From an uncultured Phycisphaeraceae bacterium (GTDB lineage: Bacteria; Planctomycetota; B15-G4; JADJEK01): a stretch of DNA of 46,226 nt. The notes below the pieces were generated by a model. The model was not told the DNA's origin and ran no database searches. It saw only the letters and a list, made by a program, of their open reading frames with translations. The translations under genes were made by a program, and so were the position numbers. This document shows positions 7,471-46,226 of this stretch, piece by piece. The first letter of the stretch is position 1; every line of letters begins with the position of its first letter. Location: the NCBI GenBank assembly GCA_964580365.1, contig CAZOLL010000001.1:1-46226 (forward strand), in the 5' to 3' direction.

Positions 7471-7559
7471 CGTTCGTCGCTCCTGTGGTGCCGTGCCCAT
7501 CTCGGCGTGAGGGCTGGTGACGGTCGGGAAAGCGCCGAGACCGTCGAGCGCGCTGCGTC

Positions 7560-7799: not shown

Positions 7800-7801
7800 G
7801 G

Positions 7802-8966: not shown

Positions 8967-9004
8967 CATGCGGTACATTGTACCTCTACCTATACTGTGG
9001 TCAA
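8967..9004 (-). promoter_or_regulatory. Sigma70-type promoter with palindromic operator motif (leftward)
   Basis: The minus strand reads TTGACC-N16-TACAAT-GTACCGC-A. The motif TGCGGTACATTGTACC lies at 8969-8984. Confidence 0.6.
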
Positions 9005-9076
9005 ACCCCCATTCCGAAGGACCTGAATCCACTCCGTCCGCGTTCCGTCCCGAGCGCGGTCTCGAACCCCCACCCC

Positions 9077-10296: not shown

Positions 10297-10500
10297 TCAA
10301 GAGCCGCTCCCCGTGGGCGGCTCTTTTCTTTTCACGAGCGCCGCGCGGATCTCGGCGAGCGTCAGCTCGCGGCCGGTGCGGCAGTCGAAGATGTACGTGA
10401 CGTTCGGCGGCACGCGCCCGATCTCCTGCATCACCTCGAACGCGCGCTCGAGCGCCTCGGCGTCCGGCTCCTCGCCGGGTTTCAGGCAGTAGGACTTCAT
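10297..10500 (-). CDS. Hypothetical protein
   Basis: 67 aa (MKSYCLKPGEEPDAEALERAFEVM...), ATGA-coupled. Confidence 0.6.
   Translation of the reverse strand: MKSYCLKPGEEPDAEALERAFEVMQEIGRVPPNVTYIFDCRTGRELTLAEIRAALVKRKEPPTGSGS
10299..10332 (+). terminator. Intrinsic terminator (plus-strand sense)
   Basis: AAGAGCCGC-loop-GCGGCTCTT followed by TTTTCTTTTC. It overlaps the 3' end of the convergent minus-strand gene. Confidence 0.6.
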
Positions 10501-10736
10501 GCGGCCCGCTCGCGGAGATCCGCGTCGAACAGTGCGACGTCCTCGCGCGACGACGTGCCGTGCCGCCACGTGATGTCGAGGCCGGCGAACGACGGATCGT
10601 TCTTGAGGTCGTGGACGAAGCACAACACCGCGATCTCCGTCTCGAAGTAGGCGGTCGGCGGGAACGGTTCGTCGAAGCGCGAGTGCGCCGTGAACTCGAT
10701 GACCCACCAGCGCGGCCACTGCGGCGCGCGCTTCAC
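10497..10736 (-). CDS. Hypothetical protein
   Basis: 79-aa ORF with a GTG start in a GTGA overlap with the upstream stop. Confidence 0.6.
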   Translation of the reverse strand: MKRAPQWPRWWVIEFTAHSRFDEPFPPTAYFETEIAVLCFVHDLKNDPSFAGLDITWRHGTSSREDVALFDADLRERAA

Positions 10737-11263
10737 ATTTCACCGCCGCCGAGCCACCGCTCGAGCGCGGCCGGGGCCGGGGTGTGGAACGTCCGCGGCC
10801 AGATGACCGGACCTTCGTCCGGCATTGTCTCGTCGGCGAGCGCGAGCTCGCCCTCTCGCTTCTCGATGAGCGCACGCGCCTGCCGCTTCGTGAGCTTCTG
10901 GAACCGGCACGTCGCGCGGATGACGTCGTCGGTGTTCCGCGCGCTCATCAGCTTCGAGAGCACCGAGTCCATCGGCTCGAGCACCTCGTCGCCCGGGACG
11001 AAGCACACGTCGATCGCGCCGTCGGCGGTGCGGCCCCATCCGATCGCGTCGCGCTTCCGCGGGTGCGTGTGGTCGGGATTCCTCAAGACCCACCGGCCCC
11101 ACCCGCGCTGTTTGTCCTTGACGATCAACCCAAACCGCTCGAGGTCGGAGCACTGCGCCGCACGCGACGCGAGGCTCTTGTGCTCGACGCGCAGCCGGTG
11201 CACGAACCGACTTGCGGACGCGGCACGAACCCGGTGCGCACGCTTCGTTCGTCGACGCTTCAT
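10733..11263 (-). CDS. Hypothetical protein
   Basis: 176 aa from the ATG at 11263 (MKRRRTKRAHRV...), TGATG-coupled. Confidence 0.6.
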   Translation of the reverse strand: MKRRRTKRAHRVRAASASRFVHRLRVEHKSLASRAAQCSDLERFGLIVKDKQRGWGRWVLRNPDHTHPRKRDAIGWGRTADGAIDVCFVPGDEVLEPMDSVLSKLMSARNTDDVIRATCRFQKLTKRQARALIEKREGELALADETMPDEGPVIWPRTFHTPAPAALERWLGGGEM

Positions 11264-11523
11264 CACCGCCTCCAGTTCAGAGCGTAGAGAGAAGCGCGCT
11301 CGCTCGCGCGCGTGAGCGACACGATGCCGATGCTCGTCTCGAGCTCGCCGCCGGTCCAGATGCGCGTCGGCCGCGTGTACGTGAACACCGCGTCGTCGGG
11401 AATCCGCCGAGTCGTGAGCCACCGCCACGCGCGAAGCCACCACGGCCGCGGCACGGTGAAGAACTCGAGGTGCGTCCCGACGGGGAACTTCGCTTCGTCG
11501 CTCTCGACGACGTTGATTTCCAT
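11263..11523 (-). CDS. Hypothetical protein (apparently leaderless start)
   Basis: The ATG at 11523 (MEINVVESDEAKF...) lies 7 nt downstream of the -10 box TAGCAT with no SD. Confidence 0.6.
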   Translation of the reverse strand: MEINVVESDEAKFPVGTHLEFFTVPRPWWLRAWRWLTTRRIPDDAVFTYTRPTRIWTGGELETSIGIVSLTRASERASLYALNWRR

Positions 11524-11558
11524 GCGGTACATGCTACCGTGCGGCCTTCCCGCGACAA
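11523..11558 (-). promoter_or_regulatory. Sigma70-type promoter with palindromic operator motif (leftward, leaderless)
   Basis: The minus strand reads TTGTCG-N16-TAGCAT-GTACCGC-ATG. The motif TGCGGTACATGCTACCGTGCGG lies at 11523-11544. Confidence 0.6.
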
Positions 11559-11568
11559 GGAGAAACCG

Positions 11569-11871
11569 ATGTCACGACACACGAGGGCGCATCCGACACC
11601 GAGGACGAAGCTCGCGAATGACCGCCGCGCGCGCCGGCGCAGCGAGCACCGCATCGACACGCCGTACACCGTGTCGCAGAACGGGTTCACCGAGAAGAAG
11701 AAGTCGCACCTGACGGGGAAGCACCGCGCGGCGAGCCGGCCGCACCACGGCATCCGCTCGATCCGCGCGCGGCAGCGCGAGGTGAAGCGCCGGTTCGACG
11801 AGCGGTGCAAGGGCATCCCGCGCTTCCTGCGCCGCGACCGCGAGTTCAGCCGCGAGTGCAACCACGCATGA
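11569..11871 (+). CDS. Highly basic small protein
   Basis: AAGGAGAAACCG-ATG. 100 aa rich in R/K/H. Confidence 0.55.
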   Translation: MSRHTRAHPTPRTKLANDRRARRRSEHRIDTPYTVSQNGFTEKKKSHLTGKHRAASRPHHGIRSIRARQREVKRRFDERCKGIPRFLRRDREFSRECNHA

Positions 11872-12086
11872 ACGGCCGCTGCGACTGCTGCGGCGCGCCG
11901 GTCGCGGACTGGGACCGCGAGAACTGCGCGAAGTGCGACGACGAGATCACGCGCGGCAAGCACCACCCGCTCGCGTGCGCCGAGCAGAAGCGCCACCGCG
12001 ACGGGATGCGCCGCGGCAAGGACGTCGTCGACAAGCCGCCGCCCGACCTGCCCGAGAAGTGGCGGGATTTCCTGGCCGGTAAGTGA
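11868..12086 (+). CDS. Small zinc-finger protein
   Basis: ATGA-coupled start (MNGRCDCCGAPVADWDRENCAKCDDE...). Confidence 0.6.
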   Translation: MNGRCDCCGAPVADWDRENCAKCDDEITRGKHHPLACAEQKRHRDGMRRGKDVVDKPPPDLPEKWRDFLAGK

Positions 12087-12096
12087 TACCGTGCGG
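12076..12096. promoter_or_regulatory. Orphan copy of the palindromic operator motif
   Basis: CCGGTAAGTGATACCGTGCGG matches CGGTA-N5-TACCGTGCGG of the 11523 and 14271 sites. It overlaps a stop codon and has no convincing -10 box. Confidence 0.4.
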
Positions 12097-12149: not shown

Positions 12150-12203
12150 GTGAAAGCAGAAGGGCCGCGCTCGATGCCATGAGCGCGGCCCTTTCTTCGT
12201 TCA
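12150..12203. terminator. Bidirectional intrinsic terminator between convergent genes
   Basis: Perfect 12-bp stem AGGGCCGCGCTC/GAGCGCGGCCCT (12161-12192) with T-rich runs on both strands. Confidence 0.7.
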
Positions 12204-13845: not shown

Positions 13846-14102
13846 GGGTCGATCACCTCCAGCTTCACGAAGAAGTCGCCGCGCTGCGGCTCGATGAGTC
13901 GCCACTGCTCCTGCGGAACCTCACCGTCGTTCTCGATGCACATGAACGGCGGGCAGATCGTCGGCGGGAAGTGACCGTGCTGACACGGCTCGCCCGGACC
14001 GATGCTCACGAGGCGGCGCAGGCGGAAGCGCACCACGCGATCGCCGCGCGCACGCGCGATGGCGCGGACGTCAGGCGGGGGAGCCACTGGCGAGCCTCGC
14101 AC
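13842..14102 (-). CDS. Hypothetical protein (start uncertain, GTG at 14102 or 14087)
   Basis: High GC3. The C-terminal part CIENDGEVPQEQWRLIEPQRGDFFVKLEVIDP looks like genuine protein. Confidence 0.5.
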   Translation of the reverse strand: MRGSPVAPPPDVRAIARARGDRVVRFRLRRLVSIGPGEPCQHGHFPPTICPPFMCIENDGEVPQEQWRLIEPQRGDFFVKLEVIDP

Positions 14103-14271
14103 CGCGCTCGTACTTCGCCGACACCTCGCGCGCCTTGTCGCGGATGCACAGCTCGAGCGCGGCGGTCTTGGAAAGGCCGAGCTGCTGCGCGATGATGGCG
14201 AGCAGCTTGGTCCCCTCGATCGACATGGAGTAAGACGTCTTCCGGTACCGACGACCTGGTGTTTTGCCCAT
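14071..14271 (-). CDS. Ribbon-helix-helix (Arc/CopG-like) DNA-binding protein, leaderless
   Basis: MGKTPGRRYRKTSYSMSIEGTKLLAIIAQQLGLSKTAALELCIRD shows a basic arm, beta strand and two helices. The ATG lies 7 nt after the -10 box TATGAT. Confidence 0.6.
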   Translation of the reverse strand: MGKTPGRRYRKTSYSMSIEGTKLLAIIAQQLGLSKTAALELCIRDKAREVSAKYERGARLASGSPA

Positions 14272-14307
14272 GCGGTACATCATACCGTGCCACTGACCGA
14301 CGATCAA
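14271..14307 (-). promoter_or_regulatory. Sigma70-type promoter with palindromic operator motif (leftward, leaderless)
   Basis: The minus strand reads TTGATC-N17-TATGAT-GTACCGC-ATG. The motif TGCGGTACATCATACCGTGCC lies at 14271-14291. Confidence 0.65.
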
Positions 14308-31693: not shown

Positions 31694-34600
31694 GTGCCGG
31701 GCATCGGCGACCAGTGGTACCAGCAGGGGTTGAAGCAGCAGCAGTGGCGCGCGCGACACGGCGACGAGCCGATGCCGCGCCCGTTGGACCCGCAGGCGAT
31801 CGGGCGCGCCGCCGCGCTCGAGGAGATGCGCCGCGAGGTCGAGGGGTGGGACCCGATCAGCCGCTCGCTCCTCGCGGGCTCGACGTCCTTCGCTGAAACC
31901 GCGAGCTTCGGGCTCCTCCCGCGGGAACGCATCTACCGCATGGCCGGCGGCGACCCCGAAATGGCGGCGCTCGCCGGGCAGGCGATCCGCGAGGACGAGG
32001 CGGCGCACCCGTGGACGGCCGGGCTCGCGTCGACGGCGGGCGGGCTGTACGGGATGACGACGGGCGCGGGCCTGATCTCGAAGGGCCTGTCGCGCACGGC
32101 GCTCCCGCTGGTGGGCCGGTACGCGCCGGAAGGCATCGCGAAGGGCCTTGCCGAGCCGATGACGCGGCAGCTCGCGCGCTCGGCGACGTCGTTCAGCGTC
32201 CAGCAGGCGGTGACGCGGGGCGGCGGGCAGATCGCCTACCGCTCGGCGACTGGGCAGCCGCAGGACTACCTCGAGTCCGCCGGAGAGGCGGTCCGCGGGG
32301 GCGCGCGCGGCGCGGTCGAGGGCGCGGTCTTCCCGATCGCGGGACAGGTGGCGCGGAACATCGCCGGCCGGGTGGTGCGGATCAAGCCGGGCATGCAGCC
32401 GACCCGGCTCCAGTCGATCGGGCGGGACGTGATCGGCGAGTCGGCGTTCTTCGCCGGTCTGTCCGCGGCGACCGCCGAACCCGGGCACCGGCTCGAGGCG
32501 GCGGGGCAGGGTGCGATCGCAGGCCCGCTCGCGTCGATCGGTTCGTGGGGCAAGAAGATCCGTGGTGAGGTGCCGCACGAGGGCCTGACGCCCGACGAGG
32601 TCGCCACGCTCGGCCCGCAGGTCGCCGAGGCCGAGGTCGCCGGCCGCGGGCTCCAGGGCGCGAACGACTTCCTGAACTCGACGGCCGCGCTCAAGAAGTA
32701 CGGGCCGGTGACGCCGGCGGCGCGCGCCGCGCTCCAGGCGGACCCGCAGCGGTTCGCCCGGCTCGACCCTTCGATGGACCGGGCGAAGGCGCCGGTGTTC
32801 CGGCCGGAGCGGGTCGCAGCCGCGCCGAACCCGAAGGTGCTCGCGGACGATCCGGTGGTGGGCTCGATCTACCGCGCCGAGACGACGCCGGCGGACTTCC
32901 GCGCGTTCGTGGATCGGCAGATCCCGTCGTTCCTGATGCCCTCCGAGCCGGACACGGTGCTGACGCCGAAGGAGAAGGCGACGCAGGCGGCGTTCGGCGA
33001 GCTCCCGCAGGAGGCGCTCCGCCGCGCCGGCGCCGACGTCATTCAAACGAAGCGCGGCACGATCGCGTTCTGGCCGGACCTCGTGTCCGAGGTGTTCCGC
33101 CACAAGGACAGCTCGAGCCGCGTCTACCTCGAAGGGCTGTTGAAGCGGCCGATCACGGGCAAGACGAAGTTCACGCACGGCGCGCTCGCGATGTCGATGA
33201 CCCGGCTCGCGAACAACGACGCGCTCGGCGAAGTGCTCGGGTACGGCGTCGGCCACGCGACGAAGACCGGAAAGGACGTCGCCATCACCGGCCGCGACGA
33301 GCAGGGGTACGAGGTCCGCACCGTCCTCACGACGCAGGAGAAGAAGCCCGAGGCGATCAAGGGCCTCATGCGCGCGGGGGCGAAGCGGATCGAGGTGCGC
33401 GACCCGACGCAAACGCCGGAGATCATCGGCGAGCGCGTGTCGACGGAGATCACGCCCGAGGGGCCGAAGCTGACCGGCGCGCCGGCGATCCCCGAGACGA
33501 CGACGCGGACCGAGCCCGGCCCGTCGCGAGAACTTCCTGGCAGGTTGATGTCTCGTCGTGCGGAAGATGCGCAGGAGATGCGCCGCCAGGAGCCGATGGC
33601 CGTCGACTCGAAGGGGCGCGTGTTCACGGTCGGGTTCGTCGCCTCCGGCCCGTCGCCCGGGCGCATGATCGAGGAGGTCTTCGGACGCCACGACACGCGC
33701 GAGGCGGCGCTCGCCGAGGTGGAGCGCGAGAACCAGACCAGCGCCACGAAGGCGCCGCTGACGGTGAAGCCCGGCCGCAACCCGCGGGAGTGGCTCACGG
33801 TCCGGCAGATCCCGTTCGGCGAGGTGGGCGGGTTGCACCAGCAAAAGGCGCTCGCGGACCGCGGCATGTGGGAGATCCAAAGTCGCGCCGCCGAGCAGCA
33901 GCAACGCGCGCTCGAGCGCGAGCTCGACCTCGCCCGCGAGCAGCAGCGACGCGCGCTCGAGCGCGAGCAGCAGATGGCGGAGATGCTCCCGCAGCCGGCC
34001 GGGCCGGGGCTTCCCGCGCCGCCGGAAATGAAGGCGCTGCCGCGCCCGAAGGGCGCGCTGATCCAGCACCCCGCGCATTTCATCGCCGGTGAAACCGGAC
34101 CCGCGCAGGTGACTGGGTCGCGGTCCCAGCCGCCCCGCGGCGCTGGCACGTCGCGCCGACGGCCGGCTCCCGAGGTCGCGAAGGCGCTCGGACGGCTCGA
34201 CGAGATCAAGGCGGGGCTGCGCGGCGGCACCATGAAGGCCGCGGACGTCCAGGGCGAGGCCCGGCAGCTCATGGGGCGCATCGACGAGATCGAGCGCGGC
34301 CAGCGGCTCGAGCGCGAGCCGGAGCGCATCGCGAAGCTGACGCACGCCGCGCCCGAGGCGGTGCAGGAGGGCGAGAAGTCGGTCCTGTACCCGAACGAGT
34401 TCGAGCAGGGCGGCGAGCGGTTCGGCGTCACCTACGCGGTCGTGCGCGACAAGGACATCGCCGTCTCGCACGACGACAAGACGCTGGCACGCAACCCGAA
34501 CTACCCGCGCGAGCTCCAGAACCGGAACCGCGAGCAGGACGGCCCGAAGATCGACGTGCAGGTGGCGGGGCTCCGCGAGGACCCCGGCCGCTATGCGCTG

Positions 34601-37600
34601 CCGTCGACGAGCGGCGACCAGGGACCGCCGGTGGTCTGGCGCGACGCCGAGGGCAAGATCGGCAAGCCGGGCGCGCTCTACGTGCTCGCCGGCAACGGCC
34701 GCATGATCGCGCTGCGCCGCTTCGCGCGGAAGTCGTTCGCCTACTCGACCGCGATGGCGGAGCAGGCGAAGAAGCTCGGCATCGACGTGAAGGAGCCGAA
34801 GGGCAAGGTGCTCGTCCGCATCCTCGACGACATGCCGTTCAAGGATGCGGCGAAGCTCGTCGGCAAGTTCCAGGGCGGCTCGAGCGCCCCCGAGGGTCGG
34901 TTCGAGCGCAGCCGCGGCGCGGCCGGAAAGGTCGGCCTCGAGAAGATGGGCGACGTCGTCGTGAAGTGGGCGCCGGATGGGCCGCTGAACGCGACGAACC
35001 TCGAGACGTTCGAGAAGAACAACCCCGACCTCGTGCGCAAGGTGTTCCCGGGCGCAGAGTCGGGCGTCGGTGTGGACGCCGAGGCGCGCGCGCAGCGGTA
35101 CAAGGACGTGCTGACCGGGATGCTGCCGCTCGACCTGCTCGACGCCGCGGCGCGGCTGCCGGAGCAGGTGCAGCAGGACATCTACGAGATGGCGCCGCAG
35201 CTCCACCGCTTCGCGGCTCTCGTGGTCGAGGGCAAGATCGACGATCGGTGGGACTTCATCCCCGACATGGCGCGCGCGATCACGGTGCTGCCGGAGATCC
35301 GCGAGCAGTTGAAGAACCTGAACCGCGCCGCGATGGGCGCGCTCCAGATCGAGCTCTTCAAGGGCGGCGGCGGGTCGTCGCTGCGCGACGTGGTGAGGGC
35401 GCTCGAGGGGCTCGGCGACGATCGCGCGCGCATGACGCTCGGCATCGCGATCGGGTGGAGCAAGGACCGCGACTCGGTCGGCTACATGGCGCGCCGCATC
35501 GCGGCGTACACGCAGCTCGCGCTCGACGGGTCGGCGAAGGCGCCGGCGACGATGTTCAAGATGTCGCACGAGACGAAGACCGGCGCGGTCGACTACGTCG
35601 CGGACTTGTTCAACAAGACGGTCAGCGAGCAGGCCACCGCTTTCCTCGAGCGCGTGCGCGCGAACCGCCGTACCCTCGATGCGGGCGTCGCGCTCGGAAA
35701 GCTCCAGAACAAGCTCTTCCCCGGCGTCGAGACGCTGAGTCCGAAGAACAAGCAGCACGCGGCCTACATCAAGTTCTACGACGAGATGATGGGCAAGGTT
35801 CGCGCGGGCGGCACGCTGGAGGAGCACGTCACGAACGCACTCGCCACCAAACCGACGAAGAACGCCGACTGGCTCGAGCTGCTCGAGGGATTCCTCCGCG
35901 GCGAGGCCAGCGAGGGAGAACTCCATGACATCGCAGCCCGGCACGAACCGTCTCGACCGACTCGCGAGCGCGGCGAGCGAAGCGAACCTGAACCCGAACG
36001 AGCTCCCGCTGGCGATGACGCCGCGGCGCGAGAGCCTGAACGACCTGTCGAGGATCGCGGCGAGCGAGAGCCCGGACATCGAGGAGCTGACGCAGGAGGC
36101 GCTGATGGACCTCGAGCGGAGCGGGCAAAGCGAATCAAGCACACCTACGTCCCCGCGCGAGCAGCAAGTGCTGAACGAATCCCTTCTGACCTTGTCCGAC
36201 ACCTAGACCAGCACCAGGTCGACGCGATCTCGCACGCTCTCGAGGCGCTGGACGCGGCCGACCCCGGGGCGCGCGGCTTCGTGATCGCGGACGGCACCGG
36301 CGTCGGGAAGACGCGCGAGATGCTCGCGGTCGCGGAGAAGTTCCGCCGCGAGGGCAAGGTGGTGGTGCTCGTTGGCCCGGCGAAGATCGGCCCGAAGGGC
36401 AAGCCGATCTACAAGAGCTCGCTGGCGAGCGAGGCGGAAGAGCTCGGCATCGCGCTCAACTGGGTGGCCGGCGGCACCGCCGCGCCCGGCCGCGTCAACA
36501 CGACTTCGTACTTCTGGCTCGACAAGGTCAAGGTGCCGAGCGGGGCGATCCTCCTGTTCGACGAGGCGCACGCGCTCAAGAACGCCGACTCCGGCCAGAC
36601 GAAGGCGGCGCTCGAGCTGATCAGCAAGGCCGACGCCGTCCTGTTCGCGTCCGCGACGATCATGGACAAGGCGGTGCACCTGCCGTACTTGGCGCGCGCT
36701 GGCGCGCTCGAGGGGCGCACCGTCGCCGAGCAGCTCGCGCACCTCGGGATGCGCCTCGAGGTCGAGCACCGCATCAACAAGAAGACGGGCAAGCCGTTCA
36801 AGCTCGAGCGGTGGATTCCCGACCCGAGGGCGCGAAGCCCGGACGGGAACCTGCGCGGCAGCCTCGAAGTGACGCGCCGCCAGGGAGAGCTCGTGCGGCG
36901 CATGGTCGCCAACGGCCGCGTGATCAAGCGCGAGATCGGCATGGAAGGCGTCTCGGTCACCGTCGACAACATCAAGCTCGGCGAGGCGTGGCAGGCCGTC
37001 GAGAACAAGCTGCGCGAGAAGTTCGACGGCAAGGTCTTGCAGATGCACGAGAGCATCCAGCAGGAGCCGTTCAAGATCCCGCACGTCGTCAAGATGGTGT
37101 CGGAGGAGCGCGCCGCCGGCCGCTCGGTGATCATCTTCGCCGCCCGCGTGAATGAGTCGGCCGCGGTGAAGCGCCGCTACACGAAGGAAGGCGAGGTCAT
37201 CGAAGAGGTCGTCCACCAGACCGAAGGCACGTTGAAGACGTTGCGCGAGAAGTTGATCGAGGCCGGCATCCCCGAGGCAGAGATCGGAGAGATTCACGGT
37301 GGCGTGAAGGCCGATGTGCAGGAGCGGAGTCGGGTCGAGTTCCAGAGCAACAAGCGCAAGGTGATCATCGCGACGGCCGAGTCTGGCGGGGCCGGCATCA
37401 ACCTCGACGACACGACGGGCAAGTTCCCGCGCACGATGATCGTGATGACGGCGCCGTACTCCGGCGTGACGAACGCGCAGGCGTGGGGCCGCATCTGGCG
37501 CCTCAACACGAAGGGCGACGCGCGGATTCGGTACGTCTACTCGGACAGCGCGACCGACGTGCGACGCGCGGCGATCGTCACCAAGAAGATGCTCCACCTC

Positions 37601-38191
37601 GGCGCGGCGCTCCAGGGCGAGCACAAGCGGCTGATGGAGGTCGTCGACGGGATGACCGACATCTCCGACGCGGCGATCGACCAAGTCCTCGGCGAAACCG
37701 TCGCGCACTCGAGCAAGCCGGACACGGTCGGCAAGCTGCCGGTCGCGCCGCTCGACACCGCCGCGGAGCGGGGCCTGATGAACGAGCTGCGCTACAAGTG
37801 GGCGAAGGGCGACAAGAACGCCCCGGTCCGCGTGAAGGCGCGCGTGCTCGACGCGGCAAAGGTCGTGGTCGAGAAGCTGCGCGGCATGGGCATCGACGCC
37901 ACGCTGCGCGAGTCGGACGGCATGGTCACGCTGAACCGCAAGTTCGCGAAGGAAGCCGAGCCGAGGGCGCAGGACATGATCCGAACCGAGAGCGTCGAAA
38001 CCGCGTCGGCCGAGTCGCTGCGCGAGATGGTGAAGCGGTCCGAGGAGATCAGCCCGCTCGAGCAGATCCAGGCGAAGCTCGCGATTCGGCTCGCCGAGCG
38101 GCCGGATGACGCCGAGTCGATCGCGCCGGTGCTCGACGAGCTGTCGGCGAAGATCGAGTCGCTGTACCGGAAGGGCAAGAAGCCGTGCTGA
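31694..38191 (+). CDS. Giant (2165 aa) polyvalent protein: glycine-zipper N-terminus, ParB/DdrB-like domain, SF2 (SNF2/strawberry-notch-like) helicase
   Basis: A single open frame. YPRELQNRNRE...VLAGNGRMIALRR is ParB-like. ADGTGVGKT (motif I), DEAHALKN (motif II) and QAWGRIWR (motif VI) mark the helicase. Codon bias drops between 35925 and 36206. Confidence 0.6.
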   Translation: MPGIGDQWYQQGLKQQQWRARHGDEPMPRPLDPQAIGRAAALEEMRREVEGWDPISRSLLAGSTSFAETASFGLLPRERIYRMAGGDPEMAALAGQAIREDEAAHPWTAGLASTAGGLYGMTTGAGLISKGLSRTALPLVGRYAPEGIAKGLAEPMTRQLARSATSFSVQQAVTRGGGQIAYRSATGQPQDYLESAGEAVRGGARGAVEGAVFPIAGQVARNIAGRVVRIKPGMQPTRLQSIGRDVIGESAFFAGLSAATAEPGHRLEAAGQGAIAGPLASIGSWGKKIRGEVPHEGLTPDEVATLGPQVAEAEVAGRGLQGANDFLNSTAALKKYGPVTPAARAALQADPQRFARLDPSMDRAKAPVFRPERVAAAPNPKVLADDPVVGSIYRAETTPADFRAFVDRQIPSFLMPSEPDTVLTPKEKATQAAFGELPQEALRRAGADVIQTKRGTIAFWPDLVSEVFRHKDSSSRVYLEGLLKRPITGKTKFTHGALAMSMTRLANNDALGEVLGYGVGHATKTGKDVAITGRDEQGYEVRTVLTTQEKKPEAIKGLMRAGAKRIEVRDPTQTPEIIGERVSTEITPEGPKLTGAPAIPETTTRTEPGPSRELPGRLMSRRAEDAQEMRRQEPMAVDSKGRVFTVGFVASGPSPGRMIEEVFGRHDTREAALAEVERENQTSATKAPLTVKPGRNPREWLTVRQIPFGEVGGLHQQKALADRGMWEIQSRAAEQQQRALERELDLAREQQRRALEREQQMAEMLPQPAGPGLPAPPEMKALPRPKGALIQHPAHFIAGETGPAQVTGSRSQPPRGAGTSRRRPAPEVAKALGRLDEIKAGLRGGTMKAADVQGEARQLMGRIDEIERGQRLEREPERIAKLTHAAPEAVQEGEKSVLYPNEFEQGGERFGVTYAVVRDKDIAVSHDDKTLARNPNYPRELQNRNREQDGPKIDVQVAGLREDPGRYALPSTSGDQGPPVVWRDAEGKIGKPGALYVLAGNGRMIALRRFARKSFAYSTAMAEQAKKLGIDVKEPKGKVLVRILDDMPFKDAAKLVGKFQGGSSAPEGRFERSRGAAGKVGLEKMGDVVVKWAPDGPLNATNLETFEKNNPDLVRKVFPGAESGVGVDAEARAQRYKDVLTGMLPLDLLDAAARLPEQVQQDIYEMAPQLHRFAALVVEGKIDDRWDFIPDMARAITVLPEIREQLKNLNRAAMGALQIELFKGGGGSSLRDVVRALEGLGDDRARMTLGIAIGWSKDRDSVGYMARRIAAYTQLALDGSAKAPATMFKMSHETKTGAVDYVADLFNKTVSEQATAFLERVRANRRTLDAGVALGKLQNKLFPGVETLSPKNKQHAAYIKFYDEMMGKVRAGGTLEEHVTNALATKPTKNADWLELLEGFLRGEASEGELHDIAARHEPSRPTRERGERSEPEPERAPAGDDAAAREPERPVEDRGEREPGHRGADAGGADGPRAERAKRIKHTYVPARAASAERIPSDLVRHLDQHQVDAISHALEALDAADPGARGFVIADGTGVGKTREMLAVAEKFRREGKVVVLVGPAKIGPKGKPIYKSSLASEAEELGIALNWVAGGTAAPGRVNTTSYFWLDKVKVPSGAILLFDEAHALKNADSGQTKAALELISKADAVLFASATIMDKAVHLPYLARAGALEGRTVAEQLAHLGMRLEVEHRINKKTGKPFKLERWIPDPRARSPDGNLRGSLEVTRRQGELVRRMVANGRVIKREIGMEGVSVTVDNIKLGEAWQAVENKLREKFDGKVLQMHESIQQEPFKIPHVVKMVSEERAAGRSVIIFAARVNESAAVKRRYTKEGEVIEEVVHQTEGTLKTLREKLIEAGIPEAEIGEIHGGVKADVQERSRVEFQSNKRKVIIATAESGGAGINLDDTTGKFPRTMIVMTAPYSGVTNAQAWGRIWRLNTKGDARIRYVYSDSATDVRRAAIVTKKMLHLGAALQGEHKRLMEVVDGMTDISDAAIDQVLGETVAHSSKPDTVGKLPVAPLDTAAERGLMNELRYKWAKGDKNAPVRVKARVLDAAKVVVEKLRGMGIDATLRESDGMVTLNRKFAKEAEPRAQDMIRTESVETASAESLREMVKRSEEISPLEQIQAKLAIRLAERPDDAESIAPVLDELSAKIESLYRKGKKPC
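35925..36206 (+). CDS. Embedded +1-frame ORF (93 aa) inside the linker of the giant ORF
   Basis: GGGAGA SD 5 nt before the ATG. Third positions are almost all G/C in this frame but only about half G/C in the giant-ORF frame over the same bases. Confidence 0.5.
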   Translation: MTSQPGTNRLDRLASAASEANLNPNELPLAMTPRRESLNDLSRIAASESPDIEELTQEALMDLERSGQSESSTPTSPREQQVLNESLLTLSDT

Positions 38192-41340: not shown

Positions 41341-41386
41341 TGCGGTATATTGTACCACACCGCGCGCGCCGTGCTAGGCTGAATCC
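41341..41386. promoter_or_regulatory. Divergent promoter/operator region
   Basis: The motif TGCGGTATATTGTACCAC lies at 41341-41358 (TACAAT on the minus strand). On the plus strand, TAGGCT-N6-ATG precedes the HTH gene, which would be leaderless. Confidence 0.5.
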
Positions 41387-41791
41387 ATGCCCCGCCCGTT
41401 CACGAAGATCGACACGCTCCTCGGCACCGCGCCGCTGCGCGGACGTGCTGGCGCGCGCGCGTTCGCCCGCGGCCGGTACGACCTCGAGTGGCTGTCGATG
41501 AAGACCGGGATGTCGTGCTGGACACTGCGCGAGATGCAAACCGGCCTTCGCCGGCGCCCGCGCTGGCCCTCGATCGAGATGGCGCGCATCATCGCCGCTG
41601 CGATGAAGTGCACCGAGGTCGAGCTCGTCGAGGAGCTGGCGGCGATGCGCGTGCGGTGGCACCTCCACTGCTACACCGTCCACCAGTCGACGGGCGTGGA
41701 CGACCAGATGAAGTGCGGCACGCCGGCGAACCCTCGTCAGCCGCCGGTGATCGCTGCGATGCAAGCTCTCGCTGACCACAAGGAGGAGTGA
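41387..41791 (+). CDS. XRE-like helix-turn-helix regulator
   Basis: LEWLSMKTGMSCWTLREMQTGLRRRPRWPSIEMARIIAAAM fits an HTH_XRE helix pattern. Confidence 0.5.
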   Translation: MPRPFTKIDTLLGTAPLRGRAGARAFARGRYDLEWLSMKTGMSCWTLREMQTGLRRRPRWPSIEMARIIAAAMKCTEVELVEELAAMRVRWHLHCYTVHQSTGVDDQMKCGTPANPRQPPVIAAMQALADHKEE

Positions 41792-42114
41792 TGTACGTCG
41801 TGTCCCAGGTCGAGCCGCTCCACGACAACGTGCTCGTGAAGCCGGAGATGGAGCCCGAGAAGGTCGGGGTGATCATCATGCCCGAGCAGTCGCGGCGCGA
41901 GCGCGCCGAGGGCGTCGTCATCGCGTGCGGCCCCGGTCGTCGCGGCGTGAACGGCGAGCTGATCCCGATGTCGGTGAAGGTCGGAGACAACGTGCTCTTC
42001 GGGAAGTACAGCGGCGCCGAGCAGGAAATCGGCGGAGAGAGCTACCGCATGATCCAAGACACCGAGATCATCGCGATCATCAAGGCGGTTCCGAGCGAGG
42101 AGGTTACGGTCTGA
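41791..42114 (+). CDS. groES: GroES/Cpn10 co-chaperonin homologue
   Basis: VEPLHDNVLVKPEMEPEKVGVIIMPE...GVVIACGPGRRGVNGELIPMSVKVGDNVLFGKYSGAE matches the Cpn10 pattern. AAGGAGGAG SD. Confidence 0.75.
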   Translation: MYVVSQVEPLHDNVLVKPEMEPEKVGVIIMPEQSRRERAEGVVIACGPGRRGVNGELIPMSVKVGDNVLFGKYSGAEQEIGGESYRMIQDTEIIAIIKAVPSEEVTV

Positions 42115-43580
42115 TGTTCCTCTCCACACGTGAAGGTGCGGCGTTCGCGGCGGGACTCGCCAGCGGCGCGCGCGAGAACATCCTCGTCGACAACGTCCCG
42201 GTGCGGCCGATGCTCGCCGGCGGATGGAAGAAGCACCCGTTCTGCCCCGGCTGGATGACGGCGAACGGCTACCTCGCGGACGAGAAGGCGTGGAGCTCGA
42301 CCGTCGCGAAGCTCGTCGCGTTCGAGGTGCACCAGCACGACTCCGGCCTCACGCTCGCGGACTTGTACCACACGAGCGGACCGGCACAGACCAACGCTTG
42401 CGTGGTCGAGCTGCTCGACATCGCGCTGCGCTTCGAGCTGTACCCGGGCGCCGGCTACGCGCTCACGTGGGGCACACCGCTCCCGATCGAGGAGTACGCG
42501 ACCGGCGTTCCGCCGCAGGTCACCGACGAAGACAGGAACGGGAGGTGGTATCCCGACGTCATCTACACGGGGCAGGCCGGCTCGCCGCGCAACCTCTTCG
42601 TGCCCGCGTTCTTCGACTGCGCCAAAGACCTCCGCCGCCTCGCCCACGGGACGCTGTTCGGTGCGTTCCAGGTGATGCGTCCGATTCAGCGCGTGAACTC
42701 GATCGGCGAGCTGGCGATCGGCGTGTGGTGGGACCCGAGCAAGACGTGGACGAAGCGCGCGTTCCCGGTGTACGACCGGAAGTACGGAGAGCGCGACGTC
42801 GTGCTCGACGGGTACAGCACGAACCACGTCGAGGTCGCCGAGCTTGCGTGCCTCTTCCTCGCGCTCCGCGACCCGCGCAGCTACCGGCAGCTCAAGGCGC
42901 TCGCGCTCGCCTTCCTCCGGTGGGACTGGTACTGCGGCGACGGCGGCGACGAGAGCAAGATCGGCCGCGGCTCGATTCCGTACGACAACAACTCCCGCAT
43001 GAAGGGCCGCTCGCTGATCCTGTGTGCGTGGGCGTTCCTCGCCGCACACGCGGCCGGTGACCAGGAGTTCAAGGACTACGTCGCTCTGCGCGCTGCGGCG
43101 CACGTGGCGAAGATCGCGGCGCTGTGGGACGGCAAGTTCACGCCGTCCGCGACCGCGCCGGACGGGCGGCACCTGTCCGTGCCGTGGGACGCGACGTGGA
43201 TGGTGTCGCTCATCGGGTGGGGCGCCGCGCTGTGCTCTCGCTGGATGGACACGCCGGGCGCCAGCCCGCTCGCGAACCGCGTCGCGGACTGGCTCGAGCG
43301 CCTGTTCGACGCCGGCCCGACGTTCGGGAAGCCCGGCGCGCTGCCGATCGACGTGCCGGCCTCCGGCATCGCCGACCTCGGCGGGGCGACGTGGTACTAC
43401 CCGCCGGGCGCGCCCGAGGCGAAGAACGAGAACATCCTGATCGGGACGGCGTCGTGGTGCTCGCACGTGCTCCGCGCCGTCGGGGGTCCCTCGCCGCTGC
43501 TCGACGCGCTCCGCGCTGCCGGCGAGCACTACCACTACCCGCTCGTGGACAGCACCCCCGTCATTGAGTTCGGCGGCTGA
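42114..43580 (+). CDS. Hypothetical 488-aa protein (possible tail-associated enzyme)
   Basis: TGATG-coupled to groES. Trp/Cys-containing globular composition. Confidence 0.6.
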   Translation: MFLSTREGAAFAAGLASGARENILVDNVPVRPMLAGGWKKHPFCPGWMTANGYLADEKAWSSTVAKLVAFEVHQHDSGLTLADLYHTSGPAQTNACVVELLDIALRFELYPGAGYALTWGTPLPIEEYATGVPPQVTDEDRNGRWYPDVIYTGQAGSPRNLFVPAFFDCAKDLRRLAHGTLFGAFQVMRPIQRVNSIGELAIGVWWDPSKTWTKRAFPVYDRKYGERDVVLDGYSTNHVEVAELACLFLALRDPRSYRQLKALALAFLRWDWYCGDGGDESKIGRGSIPYDNNSRMKGRSLILCAWAFLAAHAAGDQEFKDYVALRAAAHVAKIAALWDGKFTPSATAPDGRHLSVPWDATWMVSLIGWGAALCSRWMDTPGASPLANRVADWLERLFDAGPTFGKPGALPIDVPASGIADLGGATWYYPPGAPEAKNENILIGTASWCSHVLRAVGGPSPLLDALRAAGEHYHYPLVDSTPVIEFGG

Positions 43581-43607
43581 TGAGTTCGGACAAACGCGCT
43601 GGCGCAC

Positions 43608-43681
43608 GTCGCGCGAGTAGTTCAGCGGCAGAACCCCGCAAACCGCGGGATGTCGTCGGTTCGAATCCGACCCGCGCGACC
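43608..43681 (+). tRNA. tRNA-like element (probably degenerate or pseudo-tRNA)
   Basis: Canonical T-arm GTCGG-TTCGAAT-CCGAC. D-arm GTTC-AGCGGCA-GAAC. 8-bp acceptor-like stem GTCGCGCG/CGCGCGAC. The anticodon arm is CCCGC-AAACC-GCGGG with only a 5-nt loop, and the junction spacings are non-canonical. Confidence 0.4.
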
Positions 43682-43818
43682 TCTGCGCCGGCGCCCTTCT
43701 TCGTGCCGTGGAACCCGTTCGAACCGCCATCGGTTCCGCCGGGAACCGTGCTCGTCGATCGCCACGAGTCCCTCGCGGGCTGGTGGTTCGTCAAGGAGAG
43801 GCGCAAGAAGCCGCGCCA

Positions 43819-43845
43819 TTGATCCCCGTTCCGGGCCTGTAGAAT
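43819..43845 (+). promoter_or_regulatory. Candidate sigma70-type promoter upstream of the tailspike gene
   Basis: TTGATC-N15-TAGAAT. The spacer is short. Confidence 0.35.
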
Positions 43846-43881
43846 CCCTCCGCGGCGTCGCCACCGCCCGGAGGGATTCGC

Positions 43882-45828
43882 ATGGCCGGTGCTGCGCGGG
43901 GCATGTTCTACGGGCGGCGACAGGTCACAGGGGATGCGACGGACCCGGTCGAGTCCGGGTACTCGGTGGGGCCGGGCGGACAGTTCGAGGGGATCACGGC
44001 CGCGGCGATTCAGGCCGCGCACGACGCGCTCCCCTCCTCCGGCGGCATCATTCAGCTCTCGCCGGCGACGTACACGCTCGAAGCGAACGTCACCATCACT
44101 AAGCCGAACGTGTGGATTCGCGGCTCGCGCGGCGCGAAGCTCGTCCCCACCGGCTCCGGCTCGATCGGCGCGTTCCAGTTCAGCGCCGAGGACTGCCGCC
44201 TCTCCGGCATCAAGGTCAGCGTCGAGAGCGCGGTCAACGACCAGCGCATGATCTCCGCCGGCTCCGGCGCGAACAACTTCGTGTGCGAGGACGTGCTGAT
44301 CGACTGCGTGACTGCGGCCGGCTCGGGGTCGAACCCGATGCACGGCATCGACATCCGCAACACCTTCGGCGCGCGCATCCGCGGCTGCGACATCTACCCC
44401 GCGAAGGGCTTCCGCCCGTCGTACACGCTGCTCAACAGCGACATCCGCATGAGCGACGTCCAGATCCGCACGCCGTCCGCGACGTTCGGCGGGACGCAGC
44501 GCGGGTGCTACGAGGCGATCCGGTGGGAAGGCAACCGCTACCAGCGCCTCACGAGCGTCTCGGTCCTCGGCCTCGGCACGCTCACGACGGACGAGTGCAA
44601 TGAGGTCGTCGTCATCAAGGGCGACGTCACGAAGACGGTGTCGGGCGGCGACTACGCCGGCCTCAAGATCAAGGATCTCACGATCGCGAAGTGCGCGTCG
44701 CCGAAGCTGCTCTCGCTGTACGGCGTGGTCGGCTTCCAGATGACCGAGGTGCACCTCGAGGACCCGCTCGGTGCCATTGCGGCGGCGGGAGAAGCGGCGC
44801 TGTTCATCACGTCGGAGGACGACACCTCGACCGTCGGCGACGAGAGCAAAATCTGCGGCGTCGGCGAGATCAACGACATCGTGTTCGAGAACGCGGCGAC
44901 CGGCGCCGGCGTGTGCGGGTACTTCAAGGACGGAAAGAAGATCGGTGTCGCGAACGTCCAGGTGCACGCGCCGACGAACGGCCCGACGAACATGTTCATG
45001 GTGAACATCGACCGCGTGCGCATCCTCACGGTCGGGAAGAACATCCTGAACGGCGACGAAACGAACACGATGATGGGATGGGAGTTCGAGTGCGCCGCCG
45101 CGCCGCAGGCGAAGGGCCTCTACTTGCGCGGCCCGTGGGAGCACAGCTCGCTGCTCGTCGCGCCCTACCCGCCGCGCGAGCCGGCGATCCTGTGGGCCGG
45201 CGGCGCCGGCTCGATCTACGAGGATGGGTCGGAGTTCTACGGCCACAACCTCGGCAACGGCACGATCCCGTTCGCCGCGCGGCCGCGCCCGCTGATCGAC
45301 AGCTCCGGGCTCGGCGTGACCGTCGCTGGCAACGTCGTGAACGTGCCGACGGTGACGACGCTCGTCGGCACCGCGAGCGGCTCGGCGAACTACGCGACGA
45401 AGATCGTCGCGAACAAGCTGAACCGCCTGCTGTGCGGCTTCGGCTACTCGCAGCCGCTTCTCGCGCACAACGGTGGAACGCCCGCGGGCGACGGCTCGGT
45501 CGCGGCGGTGGTGACGGCGGCGAACTTCAACACCGAGATCCAAGAGATCGAGAAGAAGATCAACGAGTTCATCGACATGCCGAAGTCGGCCGCGGGCGTG
45601 CGGAAGTTCCACGCGACGCGCATGAACGGCGTCGGCGGCGCGGGCGCGGTGGCGGCGTTCACCAACCTCACCGGCGGCACCGCGGTCGCGACCGGCGTGC
45701 TCGTGGCGATCTCGGACGCGACGACCGCGAACAACGTGCTCGCGACGTTCATCTCGCTCATCGAGGCGATGGGCGGATACCTCGCCATCTCGAACCAGAG
45801 TGGGCACCCGAGCGGCGGCAACGCCTGA
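43882..45828 (+). CDS. Tailspike/depolymerase with a right-handed beta-helix (pectate-lyase-like) fold
   Basis: GGIIQLSPATYTL...VTITKPNVWIRG and repeated G-x-N/D-x-hydrophobic rungs. 648 aa. Last gene before the junction. Confidence 0.6.
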   Translation: MAGAARGMFYGRRQVTGDATDPVESGYSVGPGGQFEGITAAAIQAAHDALPSSGGIIQLSPATYTLEANVTITKPNVWIRGSRGAKLVPTGSGSIGAFQFSAEDCRLSGIKVSVESAVNDQRMISAGSGANNFVCEDVLIDCVTAAGSGSNPMHGIDIRNTFGARIRGCDIYPAKGFRPSYTLLNSDIRMSDVQIRTPSATFGGTQRGCYEAIRWEGNRYQRLTSVSVLGLGTLTTDECNEVVVIKGDVTKTVSGGDYAGLKIKDLTIAKCASPKLLSLYGVVGFQMTEVHLEDPLGAIAAAGEAALFITSEDDTSTVGDESKICGVGEINDIVFENAATGAGVCGYFKDGKKIGVANVQVHAPTNGPTNMFMVNIDRVRILTVGKNILNGDETNTMMGWEFECAAAPQAKGLYLRGPWEHSSLLVAPYPPREPAILWAGGAGSIYEDGSEFYGHNLGNGTIPFAARPRPLIDSSGLGVTVAGNVVNVPTVTTLVGTASGSANYATKIVANKLNRLLCGFGYSQPLLAHNGGTPAGDGSVAAVVTAANFNTEIQEIEKKINEFIDMPKSAAGVRKFHATRMNGVGGAGAVAAFTNLTGGTAVATGVLVAISDATTANNVLATFISLIEAMGGYLAISNQSGHPSGGNA

Positions 45829-45838
45829 GAAATCGCTC

Positions 45839-45873
45839 TTGACCGGCTGCGCCGATGCGGTATTATGTACCGC
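45839..45873 (+). promoter_or_regulatory. Sigma70-type promoter with palindromic operator motif (rightward early operon, leaderless)
   Basis: TTGACC-N16-TATTAT-GTACCGC-ATG. The motif TGCGGTATTATGTACCGCA lies at 45856-45874. Confidence 0.65.
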
Positions 45874-46226
45874 ATGGCGACAACCCACATCTTCCACGCG
45901 AGCGAGCTGCCGCTCATCGCGACGAACCCGGCCGCGTGGTCGCTCAAGCGCGAGGCCGGCGTCTTCTCCGACTCGGAGCCGGCCGCGCTCGGCCGCGCGT
46001 TCGCGCGCGCGATGGAGCTGGCGTGCAAGGTCGGCCGCGCGAAGGTCGACCTCGAGAAGGTGCGCGAGGAGTTCCAGGTCCCGATGGAGGACCTGCGCGA
46101 GCTGTGGGACCTCGTGAGCTACGACCCGGCGGGCTGGACGGCGGAGATGCCGTTCCACATGCGCTGGCCCTGCCCGGACGACAGCGGTGACACGATGGAG
46201 GTTCACTGCCGCGTCGACCGCGTGCG
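45874..46226 (+). CDS. Cas4/RecB-family PD-(D/E)XK exonuclease, N-terminal part; wraps the junction and continues in 3..764
   Basis: ATG at 45874 lies 7 nt after the -10 box TATTAT. The frame runs off the window end (MATTHIFHASELPL...WPCPDDSGDTMEVHCRVDRV) and matches the frame of ORF 24..764 once the 55-bp overlap is removed, giving about 353 aa in total. Confidence 0.8.
   Translation, partial: MATTHIFHASELPLIATNPAAWSLKREAGVFSDSEPAALGRAFARAMELACKVGRAKVDLEKVREEFQVPMEDLRELWDLVSYDPAGWTAEMPFHMRWPCPDDSGDTMEVHCRVDRV
46172..46226. repeat. Terminal direct repeat, copy 2 (circular-closure overlap)
   Basis: Identical to bases 1-55. Confidence 0.95.

Follow-up and report, generated by a model that had tools for sequence, protein, structure and literature searches.

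What acts on a short inverted repeat that recurs almost unchanged across a phage genome, mostly on promoters? The question is raised by the 46,226-nucleotide stretch of contig CAZOLL010000001.1 analyzed here (assembly GCA_964580365.1; below, the window), whose preliminary description, made from the letters alone, had noted a near-palindromic element, TGCGGTA-N5-TACC(G), at operon boundaries and had proposed that one DNA-binding protein recognizing it could shut all early promoters at once, as in an immunity regulon. The termini of the window (1-55 and 46172-46226) are identical over 55 bases, which marks it as a circularly closed assembly of ~46,171 bp (G+C 68.7%), and it is the complete circular genome of a podovirus-like phage of ~46 kb. 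Comparison of sequences and predicted folds leads us to favor, with a probability of about 0.6, a reading in which the element is the operator for a phage-encoded regulator, lying on the -10 and discriminator region of early promoters, with a small predicted ribbon-helix-helix (RHH) protein as the favored binder and a predicted XRE-like helix-turn-helix (HTH) protein as a possible one.

A dispersed palindrome lies on promoters at the heads of transcription units

A search for GGTA-N5-TACC returned exactly six matches in the whole genome, compared with 0.01 +/- 0.10 in 100 dinucleotide-preserving shuffles. These are the same six copies that had been listed before, the window holds no further one, and the expected enrichment over shuffled sequence is thereby borne out. 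Five copies carry the exact TGCGGTA-N5-TACC (8969, 11523, 14271, 41341 and 45856; Table 1), and the + strand consensus extends to (CA)TGCGGTA-N5-TACCG(TGCGG). The strict dyad is confined to CGGTA/TACCG, at positions 3-7 from the centre; outside it the symmetry is lost, and all sites share one polarity on the + strand, such that the term near-palindromic holds strictly for the inverted core but not for the outer positions. The copy at 45856-45874 is a perfect 19-bp palindrome, TGCGGTATTATGTACCGCA, that at 11523 reads TGCGGTA-CATGC-TACCGTGCGG, and that at 14271-14289 reads TGCGGTA-CATCA-TACCGTG, its right arm adjoining the GTG start of the terminase gene at 14287, from which the terminase N-terminus is conserved onward.

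We scanned the whole window with a sigma-70-type consensus, independently of the motif. Only three stringent promoters were found, at 9004..8977 (-), 14307..14279 (-) and 45839..45866 (+), with 9-10 of 12 consensus matches where 0.2-0.7 hits per region are expected, and all of them (3/3) lie on the element. The promoter at 11523 (-), TTGTCG-16-TAGCAT, reaches 8/12. The boxes named earlier were recovered in full, with -10 sequences TACAAT, TAGCAT, TATGAT and TATTAT and -35 sequences TTGACC, TTGTCG, TTGATC and TTGACC located 16, 16, 17 and 16 nt upstream. The element thus overlaps genuine-looking sigma-70-type promoters at the heads of non-structural transcription units, as had been described, and 5/6 copies lie on -10 regions at operon heads.

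At 41341, in a divergent intergenic region, the - strand offers TACAAT without a good -35, ahead of an SD-led (Shine-Dalgarno) membrane-protein gene, and the + strand TATATT; the centre of this copy lies 37 bp upstream of the ATG of the XRE-like gene at 41387, which has a box of its own, TAGGCT, 6 nt ahead of that ATG. The centre of the 8969 copy, CATTG, also yields a + strand TACATT. The copy at 12076 lies at a convergent junction directly ahead of a hairpin terminator, with no TANNNT on either strand and no -35. An element at every operon boundary had been claimed: this holds for all operon starts and for the convergent junction at 12076, but the other convergent junctions (~4930/5307, 10300 and 40770/41018) have no copy. 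Upstream of 14287, no promoter is recognizable for the 26-kb structural operon, and the terminase start has no SD.

The hairpin near 12076 is an observation in its own right: a G+C-rich stem with flanking T-runs (…AAGGGCCGCGCTC…GAGCGCGGCCCTTTCTTCGTT…) lies at 12160-12200, just downstream of the promoter-less copy, and is probably a bidirectional terminator; it is conserved between convergent gene ends at ~3385-3425 of L001, a related contig introduced below.

The arms are constant and the centre follows the direction of transcription

When each site is written TA-n1n2n3n4n5-TA, a TANNNT on the + strand requires n4 = T and one on the - strand requires n2 = A. The five central bases therefore determine on which strand a -10-like hexamer appears, and this strand agrees with gene orientation at 6/6 sites (Table 1): one strand where a single gene is served, both strands in the two divergent regions and neither strand at the convergent junction. 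Invariant arms combined with a centre that follows the direction of transcription argue for a protein-binding site over the -10 region rather than for a promoter consensus.

Since the element is an inverted repeat, we also considered that it might act as an RNA or single-stranded hairpin in termination, processing or mRNA stabilization between units. The 45856 copy does fold well (-20.0 kcal/mol, z -4.9), as does that at 41341 (-15.6 kcal/mol, z -3.0), and the copies at 45856, at 12076 and at position 4135 of the related contig L059 lie just past the stop codon of an upstream co-directional gene. However, the other four copies show no folding advantage over shuffled sequence (z -0.4 to -1.6), T-runs follow 0/6 copies, at the promoters with leaderless-type starts the element would precede the transcript and stay untranscribed, and promoter direction is tracked by the loop bases and not the stem bases. 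The weak hairpin potential at 4/6 sites favors a double-stranded DNA site, and we regard the hairpin explanation as very improbable, the least probable of those weighed here.

The element is conserved in a close lineage and replaced in distant ones

To compare promoters, we used fragmentary metagenome contigs (designated by L numbers) that carry a terminase homologue, and one that carries the sole homologue of the XRE-like protein. Searching the literature by SRA run accession yielded nothing. The close lineage (L001/L061 and L059) comes from two runs with neighboring accession numbers, SRR14932555 and SRR14932628, and is 80% identical to the window in terminase, 71% in the XRE-like protein and 65% in the RHH protein. 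It keeps the element at three orthologous places as GCGGCA-N5-TACC(GYGCGG), so conservation at equivalent promoters of a related phage, named earlier as a test, was found. In ungapped comparison, 13-15/19 core and 8-9/10 arm positions are identical at these sites, while the flanks are much less conserved.

The three sites differ in what surrounds the arms. Between the RHH and terminase genes of L001 (5466-5480, the orthologue of 14271), the sequence runs TACTAT-GTGCCGC-ATG. At L001 2885-2899 (orthologue of 11523), the element is kept and is followed by an SD leader in place of the ATG. The third site, L059 4135-4147 (orthologue of 41341), precedes the XRE-like gene. L059 lacks the divergent membrane-protein gene, and with TCTAG as its centre the site has a TANNNT on neither strand; the distance from this centre to the XRE gene start is nevertheless 37 bp, exactly as in the window. 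The element is thus separable from the promoter signal, with the arms kept at both promoter-less places, 12076 in the window and 4135 in L059. The earlier proposal of one shared DNA-binding regulator would best explain arms that persist without a -10.

In the distant lineages, whose terminases are 42-51% identical to that of the window, the palindrome is absent and the design is alike. Generic repeat finding was uninformative in these relatives, and we identified lineage-specific elements by reading the intergenic regions. The lineage L003-L008 (L003 deriving from SRR28520291 and others) has its own dispersed element, GTCGGTGTYGTATK, overlapping the -10 at three operon heads. It occurs in one orientation upstream of the Cpn10 operon (TTGACG-17-TGTATT) and in the opposite orientation upstream of the RHH gene (TTGACT-17-TACAAC-ACCGAC-ATG), and an element that overlaps the -10 in both orientations could be a binding site but not a promoter consensus. 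The corresponding sequences are TACCTT-GTGCCAC-ATG and TACGTT-GTACGTTC-ATG in L002, TACGCT-GTAGGGC-ATG in L062 and TTGACC-17-TAAACA-CTCGGC-ATG in L063. A scan of IMG/VR for CGGTA-N5-TACCGCATG returned single chance matches and no contig with several copies.

The spacing of the two divergent genes at the 14271 site can be recorded alongside: in every lineage the terminase start codon lies 12-36 bp from the divergent RHH start codon (15 bp in the window), the start intervals being 14271-14289 in the window, L001 5466-5483, L062 1401-1418, L002 5735-5760 and L007 9767-9807.

An operator or a promoter consensus

The same observations can be read without any dedicated regulator. The element would then be an early-promoter consensus, an extended -10 (CGG-TANNNT) with a fixed GTACCGC discriminator that sets the start at the A of the ATG, spread by duplication or kept for polymerase or leaderless efficiency, and its dyad would be a by-product of overlapping divergent -10 boxes. 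Every stringent promoter match does bear the element. Near-symmetric -10 regions are also known to fire both ways with starts 18 bp apart (PMC10268837), and the outer T/A of the 19-bp palindrome are likewise 18 bp apart.

Further observations weigh against an operator, the first three of them also in favor of this reading. The promoter-proximal half (GTACCGCA) is always the better conserved of the two, to the point of being the invariant one. GT(A/G)CC(G/A)C-ATG recurs behind the -10 in L001 and L002, as a discriminator or start-site signal would. In the L001/L059 lineage, GGTA has become GGCA in one arm at all three sites while the other arm stays TACC; a dyad broken alike everywhere is awkward for a strictly symmetric dimer and suggests that the promoter-proximal arm has a role of its own. 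The 12076 copy has no counterpart at the orthologous place in L001. Neither candidate regulator, the RHH or the XRE-like protein, has a match in Pfam, and the fold-search E-values for the models of both are weak (0.17-3), as a consequence of their being small domains. Finally, the comparative set is small, consisting of one close lineage and four distant ones.

Against the promoter-only explanation, both arms persist at 12076 and L059 4135, together with the outer GTGCGG/GCGCGG, although neither copy has a TANNNT or a -35, and the analogous element of L003 overlaps the -10 in both orientations. Moreover, the conserved stretch from -14 to -20 (CCGCACGG) is not needed by a host promoter. The resemblance to bidirectional promoters is also incomplete, as the reciprocal -7T/-11A pair is lacking, the two hexamers are shifted by 3 bp against each other and the -10 occupies -13 to -8 relative to the ATG. 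We therefore consider a consensus with no regulator behind it unlikely, and retain the operator as our preferred explanation.

Several other candidates were tried and rejected. GGTA-N5-TACC fits none of the host regulator boxes considered (LexA variants, CIRCE, HAIR, RecA-NDp). A restriction or type I target site was set aside as copies occur only on promoters and phages deplete such sites; a recombination site, as no recombinase was found; and a ParB/parS centromere for the ddrB-ParB domain of the 2165-aa protein, as that domain is part of a helicase-type protein in the + structural operon. A promoter for a phage-encoded RNA polymerase was discarded because a gene for such an enzyme did not turn up and the promoters resemble the host sigma-70 type. 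Leaderless expression of the terminase from the other strand of the 14271 palindrome was likewise rejected, with no TANNNT there and the wrong geometry.

Two candidate regulators

Which protein would bind the arms? The preliminary description had named two candidates, an RHH protein and an XRE-like protein, and the predicted models resemble both of these folds (with CopG, Arc and MazE6 as matches of the first, and SinR, DdrO, 434 Cro and C.BclI of the second). Sequence searches of the PDB with the two proteins gave no match. The AlphaFold2 (AF2) monomer model of the RHH protein (predicted local distance difference test, pLDDT, 83) has two helices, and its best PDB fold matches are CopG, MazE6-N, Arc and TacA (E = 0.3-3, probability 0.9-0.97). 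Its sequence, TSYSMSIEG...LLAIIAQQLGLSKTAALELCIRDKA, fits the pattern of an N-terminal beta-strand of alternating polar and hydrophobic residues and two helices with a G-x-S/T turn, and the family profile matches PDB chain 3h87_C (E = 0.001), which we take to be a mycobacterial RHH antitoxin. The AF2 model of the XRE-like protein (pLDDT 68 overall, ~83 for the HTH portion) shows a five-helix domain (residues 19-27, 33-40, 44-53, 63-73 and 77-102), whose best matches are Stl, ClgR, CapH, DdrO, SinR, 434 Cro and C.BclI (E = 0.17-1, probability up to 0.99). Among 5.8 billion proteins, the only homologue of the XRE-like protein is P0010, at 71% identity.

In 6/6 lineages an RHH-type gene lies head-to-head with the terminase, directly behind the element of that lineage. 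The two palindrome lineages, the window and L001, have a single RHH domain (66 and 61 aa), and a fused tandem RHH (100-110 aa) goes with an asymmetric or direct-repeat element (L002, L003, L007, L062 and L063; Table 1), raising the possibility that regulator architecture and operator symmetry have co-evolved. Being the only regulator common to all lineages with a dispersed, -10-overlapping element, and one whose domain architecture shifts with the symmetry of that element, the RHH protein is the candidate that we prefer, by a modest degree, over the XRE-like protein.

The same operator could instead be bound by the XRE-like protein (41387-41791), which would act in trans on most copies and regulate itself through the one whose centre lies at -37 relative to its own putatively leaderless promoter. 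The palindromic GCGG(T/C)A-N5-TACC is found only in the two lineages that have an XRE-like gene, and the 37-bp placement has stayed exact in both, even after the loss of the divergent gene and of the -10. The predicted fold resembles those of dimeric XRE repressors and of the C-proteins of restriction-modification systems, which likewise use palindromic boxes and are themselves encoded by leaderless messages (PMC2632904). On the other hand, distant lineages have a -10-overlapping element at the head of the Cpn10 operon and no XRE-like gene there, the constant partner of such elements is the RHH gene and not the XRE gene, and the site-to-ATG distance is 27 nt here vs 17-18 nt for C-boxes. Binding by the XRE-like protein thus seems to us rather unlikely.

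First genes with leaderless-type starts

The sequence GTACCGCATG occurs exactly four times (8967-, 11521-, 14269- and 45867+). Three cases of GTACCGC followed directly by the ATG of a first gene had been noted, at 45874, 14271 (-) and 11523 (-), and all three are present; however, a fourth exact case exists at 8969 (-), where the ATG opens a frame without coding signal. The gene start near this site is likely the ATG at 8923 behind AGGAG. As the ATG at 8969 is probably no gene start and CATG is kept there all the same, CATG may belong to the DNA element itself.

At 45874, 14271 (-) and 11523 (-), the -10 is followed by the 7-nt GTACCGC and then the ATG, with no SD word, and this geometry, also seen in the preliminary description, recurs before the RHH gene in 6/6 lineages (the window and, in the comparison set, L001, L002, L003, L007, L062 and L063). 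The XRE-like gene has a similar layout, TAGGCT-6 nt-ATG in the window and TACCAT-8 nt-GTG in L059. The contrast that had been drawn with internal genes preceded by strong GGAGG sites holds only partly: any SD-like word precedes 23/49 starts, but the full GGAGG only 7/49, counts that rest on approximate start calls. From the fixed 7-nt spacing between hexamer and ATG, the missing SD and the presence of the layout before the RHH gene in every lineage, the transcripts at the three sites probably begin at the A of the ATG or within 1-2 nt of it, and the first cistron would then be leaderless. The canonical +1, 7 nt past the hexamer, would be the C before the ATG; starts at G-2 and at A+1 are equally possible.

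Automatic gene callers extend the reading frames of the RHH gene (14071-14293), the 11523 gene (11263-11532) and the nuclease gene (45865-46224) to an ATG or GTG in or beyond the -10, examples being the ATG within TATTATG at 45865, the ATG at 11532 and a gene of L001 called from 5474, and the database copy of the RHH protein is cut to 51 aa. Start codons in this phage group are likely mis-annotated.

A model for coordinated shut-off of early units

If the element is an operator, as we favor, a dimeric phage protein or a dimer of dimers would recognize the two CGGTA arms in their inverted arrangement. The 10 bp between the arm centres would suit an HTH dimer as well as a dimer of RHH dimers. 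Each arm would contribute its TA as the opening dinucleotide of the -10 hexamer of its own strand, and the five central bases would set whether RNA polymerase fires rightward, leftward, in both directions or not at all. At infection, the host RNA polymerase (sigma-70/sigma-A type) would use the strong -35/-10 promoters of the replication, recombination and regulator operons, and the RHH protein, translated from a leaderless message of the 14271 promoter, would be among the first products. As it accumulated, it would bind the arms and occlude the -10 and discriminator of all five promoter copies; occupancy at 41341 would reach over the -35 of the XRE/Cpn10 operon promoter as well. The expected outcome is negative feedback and a coordinated, autoregulated shut-off of the early units.

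The preliminary description had likened such a shut-off to a dispersed immunity regulon with the logic of the P1 C1 operators. In full, this would be lysogenic immunity, a prophage repressor silencing all early promoters in the style of P1 C1 or the stoperators of mycobacteriophage L5. Several dispersed copies on early promoters and an encoded protein with a predicted repressor-like XRE fold would fit. However, Pfam and PHROGs scans of the open reading frames found no integrase, excisionase, partition or other lysogeny function, families whose absence from such scans is no proof of a virulent life style. The contig closes as a free 46.2-kb circle, and among 185,579 species genomes there is no prophage-like relative, the single match being a 39-residue fragment in a metagenome-assembled genome of Pirellulales. 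In addition, P1 operators are asymmetric sites bound by monomers, and L5 operators are asymmetric too, in contrast to the inverted repeat CGGTA-N5-TACCG. The immunity reading and its analogy with P1 C1 are thus unsupported, and the reading is very improbable.

A more ambitious version of our model treats the element as a programmable promoter-operator cassette. Its arms would bind one RHH protein and supply the TA of the -10, its centre would set direction, its outer C-A-T-G would put start codons at both potential transcription starts and allow leaderless genes on either side, and the operator would co-evolve with its regulator (single RHH, as homodimer, with palindrome; tandem single-chain pseudo-dimer with asymmetric element usable in either orientation), the 14271 site, between the RHH gene and the terminase start, acting as an early-to-late switch. 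We offer this as a doubtful but conceivable extension.

If the model were confirmed, the whole early program of a divergent uncultured phage lineage would come down to a ~19-bp site, a tiny repressor, the host RNA polymerase and leaderless first genes. It would supply an annotation rule by which related metagenomic contigs could be searched for regulators, operon heads and the start codons actually used, and the pairing of single and tandem RHH proteins with palindromic and asymmetric elements would be a natural experiment in operator-repressor co-evolution. For engineering, such a compact cassette, with five bases to choose its direction and a single small protein to control its activity, would, if real, also be a useful part.

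Genome context and relatives

The gene map (Table 1) derives from codon-bias gene calling and from Pfam and PHROGs scans of open reading frames. From its start at 45874, the nuclease gene runs on across the circle junction into 3-764.

Table 1. Elements, candidate regulators and transcription units, in window coordinates unless a contig is named
Feature	Position	Strand	Details
Promoter and operator candidate, nuclease/RecT/SSB operon	45839..45876	+	TTGACC, 16 nt, TATTAT, GTACCGC, ATG; no SD before nuclease gene; site 45856, centre TTATG, TANNNT on + only, gene on +
RHH-gene promoter and operator candidate	14269..14307	-	TTGATC, 17 nt, TATGAT, GTACCGC, ATG (14271); site 14271, centre CATCA, TANNNT on - only, gene on -
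Promoter and operator candidate, operon 10297-11523	11521..11566	-	TTGTCG, 16 nt, TAGCAT, GTACCGC, ATG (11523); site 11523, centre CATGC, TANNNT on - only, gene on -
Promoter and operator candidate, operon 5307-8923	8967..9004	-	TTGACC, 16 nt, TACAAT, GTACCGC, ATG (8969); site 8969, centre CATTG, TANNNT on both strands, divergent region
Copy in divergent intergenic region	41341..41359	both	TGCGGTA-TATTG-TACCACA; site 41341, centre TATTG, TANNNT on both strands
Promoter-less copy	12075..12096	none	GCCGGTA-AGTGA-TACCGTGCGG; site 12076, centre AGTGA, TANNNT on neither strand; overlaps stop codon of + gene 11868-12086, convergent junction
Predicted RHH protein, 66 aa	14071..14271	-	first gene behind palindrome promoter; favored candidate binder
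Predicted XRE-like HTH protein, 134 aa	41387..41791	+	alternative candidate binder; followed by Cpn10 gene 41788-42114
Tandem RHH genes	L002 5429-5737; L003 8991-9323; L007 9455-9769; L062 1101-1403; L063 349-660		comparison contigs
RHH and resolvase unit	14271 to 12201	-	RHH protein, RusA-like resolvase
Nuclease/RecT/SSB operon	45874, wrapping to 4930	+	PD-(D/E)XK nuclease (PDDEXK_1), RecT, SSB
Operon with primase-like gene	8923 to 5307	-	primase-like gene by PHROG match
Short operon	11523 to 10297	-	
Short unit	11569 to 12086	+	AAGGAG SD before its 11569 gene, which diverges from the 11523 gene
Structural operon	14287-40770	+	one long unit; T4-type large terminase, SU10-type portal and adaptor, major capsid protein, 1436-aa and 861-aa proteins without assigned function
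2165-aa protein	31694-38191	+	ddrB-type ParB domain and Strawberry-notch/SNF2-type helicase; inside structural operon
Membrane-protein gene	41323 to 41018	-	SD-led
XRE-like/Cpn10 unit	41387 to 45828	+	XRE-like protein, Cpn10, tRNA, two large proteins without assigned function

Outside the metagenomic contigs, relatives are scarce. Against 50,697 isolated phage genomes, neither a nucleotide search nor searches with the capsid protein and RecT gave a match; the terminase gave partial matches at no more than 35% identity, and the portal matched Microbacterium phage Shocker at 20.6%. Scans of IMG/VR, the JGI metagenomes and GTDB genomes with the terminase returned 25-33% identity, or fragments of 39-70 residues at 43-51%, matches so remote that a promoter comparison with them is unusable. 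Among 5.8 billion proteins, the terminase has only seven homologues.

The 8969 copy, through its + strand TACATT, faces a 1.3-kb stretch without coding signal (window 9060-9700), which lies between this palindrome and a strong terminator (10299-10325). It carries ~13 copies of GGTCCGACC, in one orientation at 9077-9316 and then as the complement at 9291-9666. The stretch is a candidate replication origin with iterons, possibly activated by transcription. In L001, the non-coding stretch 883-1240, with three copies of GGTTTCACCAGTG and a separate palindrome, GGCAACTGTTGCC, beside a TATATAT stretch, may be the counterpart of the iteron/8969 region; the palindromic element is not recognizable there.

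Further observations concern the unit behind the XRE-like gene. The Cpn10 (GroES) co-chaperonin is kept across the phage group (window 41788-42114, L003 4323-4637, L007 4796-5152 and L059 4586-4906), and a possible attenuator, a long hairpin with a T-run behind it, occurs in its leader of ~90 nt in L003 and L007. ARAGORN calls a tRNA-Val at 43610-43681, where two + genes leave a gap, with the anticodon AAC, unusual for bacteria; an Rfam scan of the whole window gave no match.

Comparison with known systems

The sites of P1 C1 and L5 gp71 are asymmetric, bound by monomers and serve prophage immunity, and include stoperators that lie inside transcription units in fixed orientation. The present element shares with them the dispersal of repressor-type sites across a phage genome, some on promoters, but it is a dyad on -10 boxes (core CGGTA-N5-TACCG) in a genome with no lysogeny module or temperate function detectable by the scans above. 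Multiple asymmetric operators are also described for phage L1, which is related to L5 (PMC1934351).

The C-proteins of restriction-modification systems use a leaderless message of their own, thought to delay timing (PMC2632904). With the XRE-like candidate they have in common an XRE-type fold (predicted here), palindromic boxes beside the promoter of the regulator and a leaderless-type message. C-boxes, however, are separated from the start codon by 17-18 nt and lack clear -10 boxes (PMC2632904), whereas here the copy ends 27 nt from the ATG and a clear TANNNT is present. Nor are C-boxes known to be scattered through a genome.

Symmetric bidirectional bacterial promoters have starts 18 bp apart and a reciprocal -7T/-11A (Warman et al. 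2021, as summarized in PMC10268837; see also PMC12825309). They resemble the element in having a pseudo-symmetric core that could fire both ways, with the outer T/A, the putative starts, 18 bp apart, and in lying in divergent regions of a mobile genome. They differ from it in their -7T/-11A pairing, for which the 45856 copy has G and T at -7 and -11 as counted from the A of the ATG, and here the hexamers are offset by 3 bp and the arms persist without a -10.

By analogy, the closest systems in logic appear to be Arc and Mnt of phage P22 and the global regulons of KorA and omega on plasmids, the likeness to P1 C1 and L5 being looser. In the immI region of P22, the small RHH repressors Arc and Mnt are made from the promoter that is repressed, at Pant/Pmnt, and their operators, inside divergent core promoters, are dyads of ~17-21 bp, each a pair of short inverted boxes spaced by roughly a turn of the helix. 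A small phage RHH candidate and a dyad with inverted boxes about one turn apart inside a core promoter recur here. Unlike the window, with its six dispersed copies, P22 has one operator region per protein, and it is temperate, with an antirepressor under control; the binder proposed here is a candidate with no Pfam or PDB sequence match.

KorA with its site OA on the IncP plasmid RK2, and omega of the inc18 plasmids, are small dimeric repressors that bind a palindrome over the -10 at several operon heads, and the outcome is a coordinated, autoregulated shut-down after cell entry. Here, too, one short palindrome is repeated at operon heads on the -10, although in a phage and not a plasmid, with a different protein family and operator sequence and with arms that themselves provide the TA of the -10. 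Regulons with several operators are well known, as are regulator genes with leaderless messages, and the control logic suggested by the element is a familiar one that adds no new category of biology; what is new is its appearance in a phage lineage without cultured relatives.

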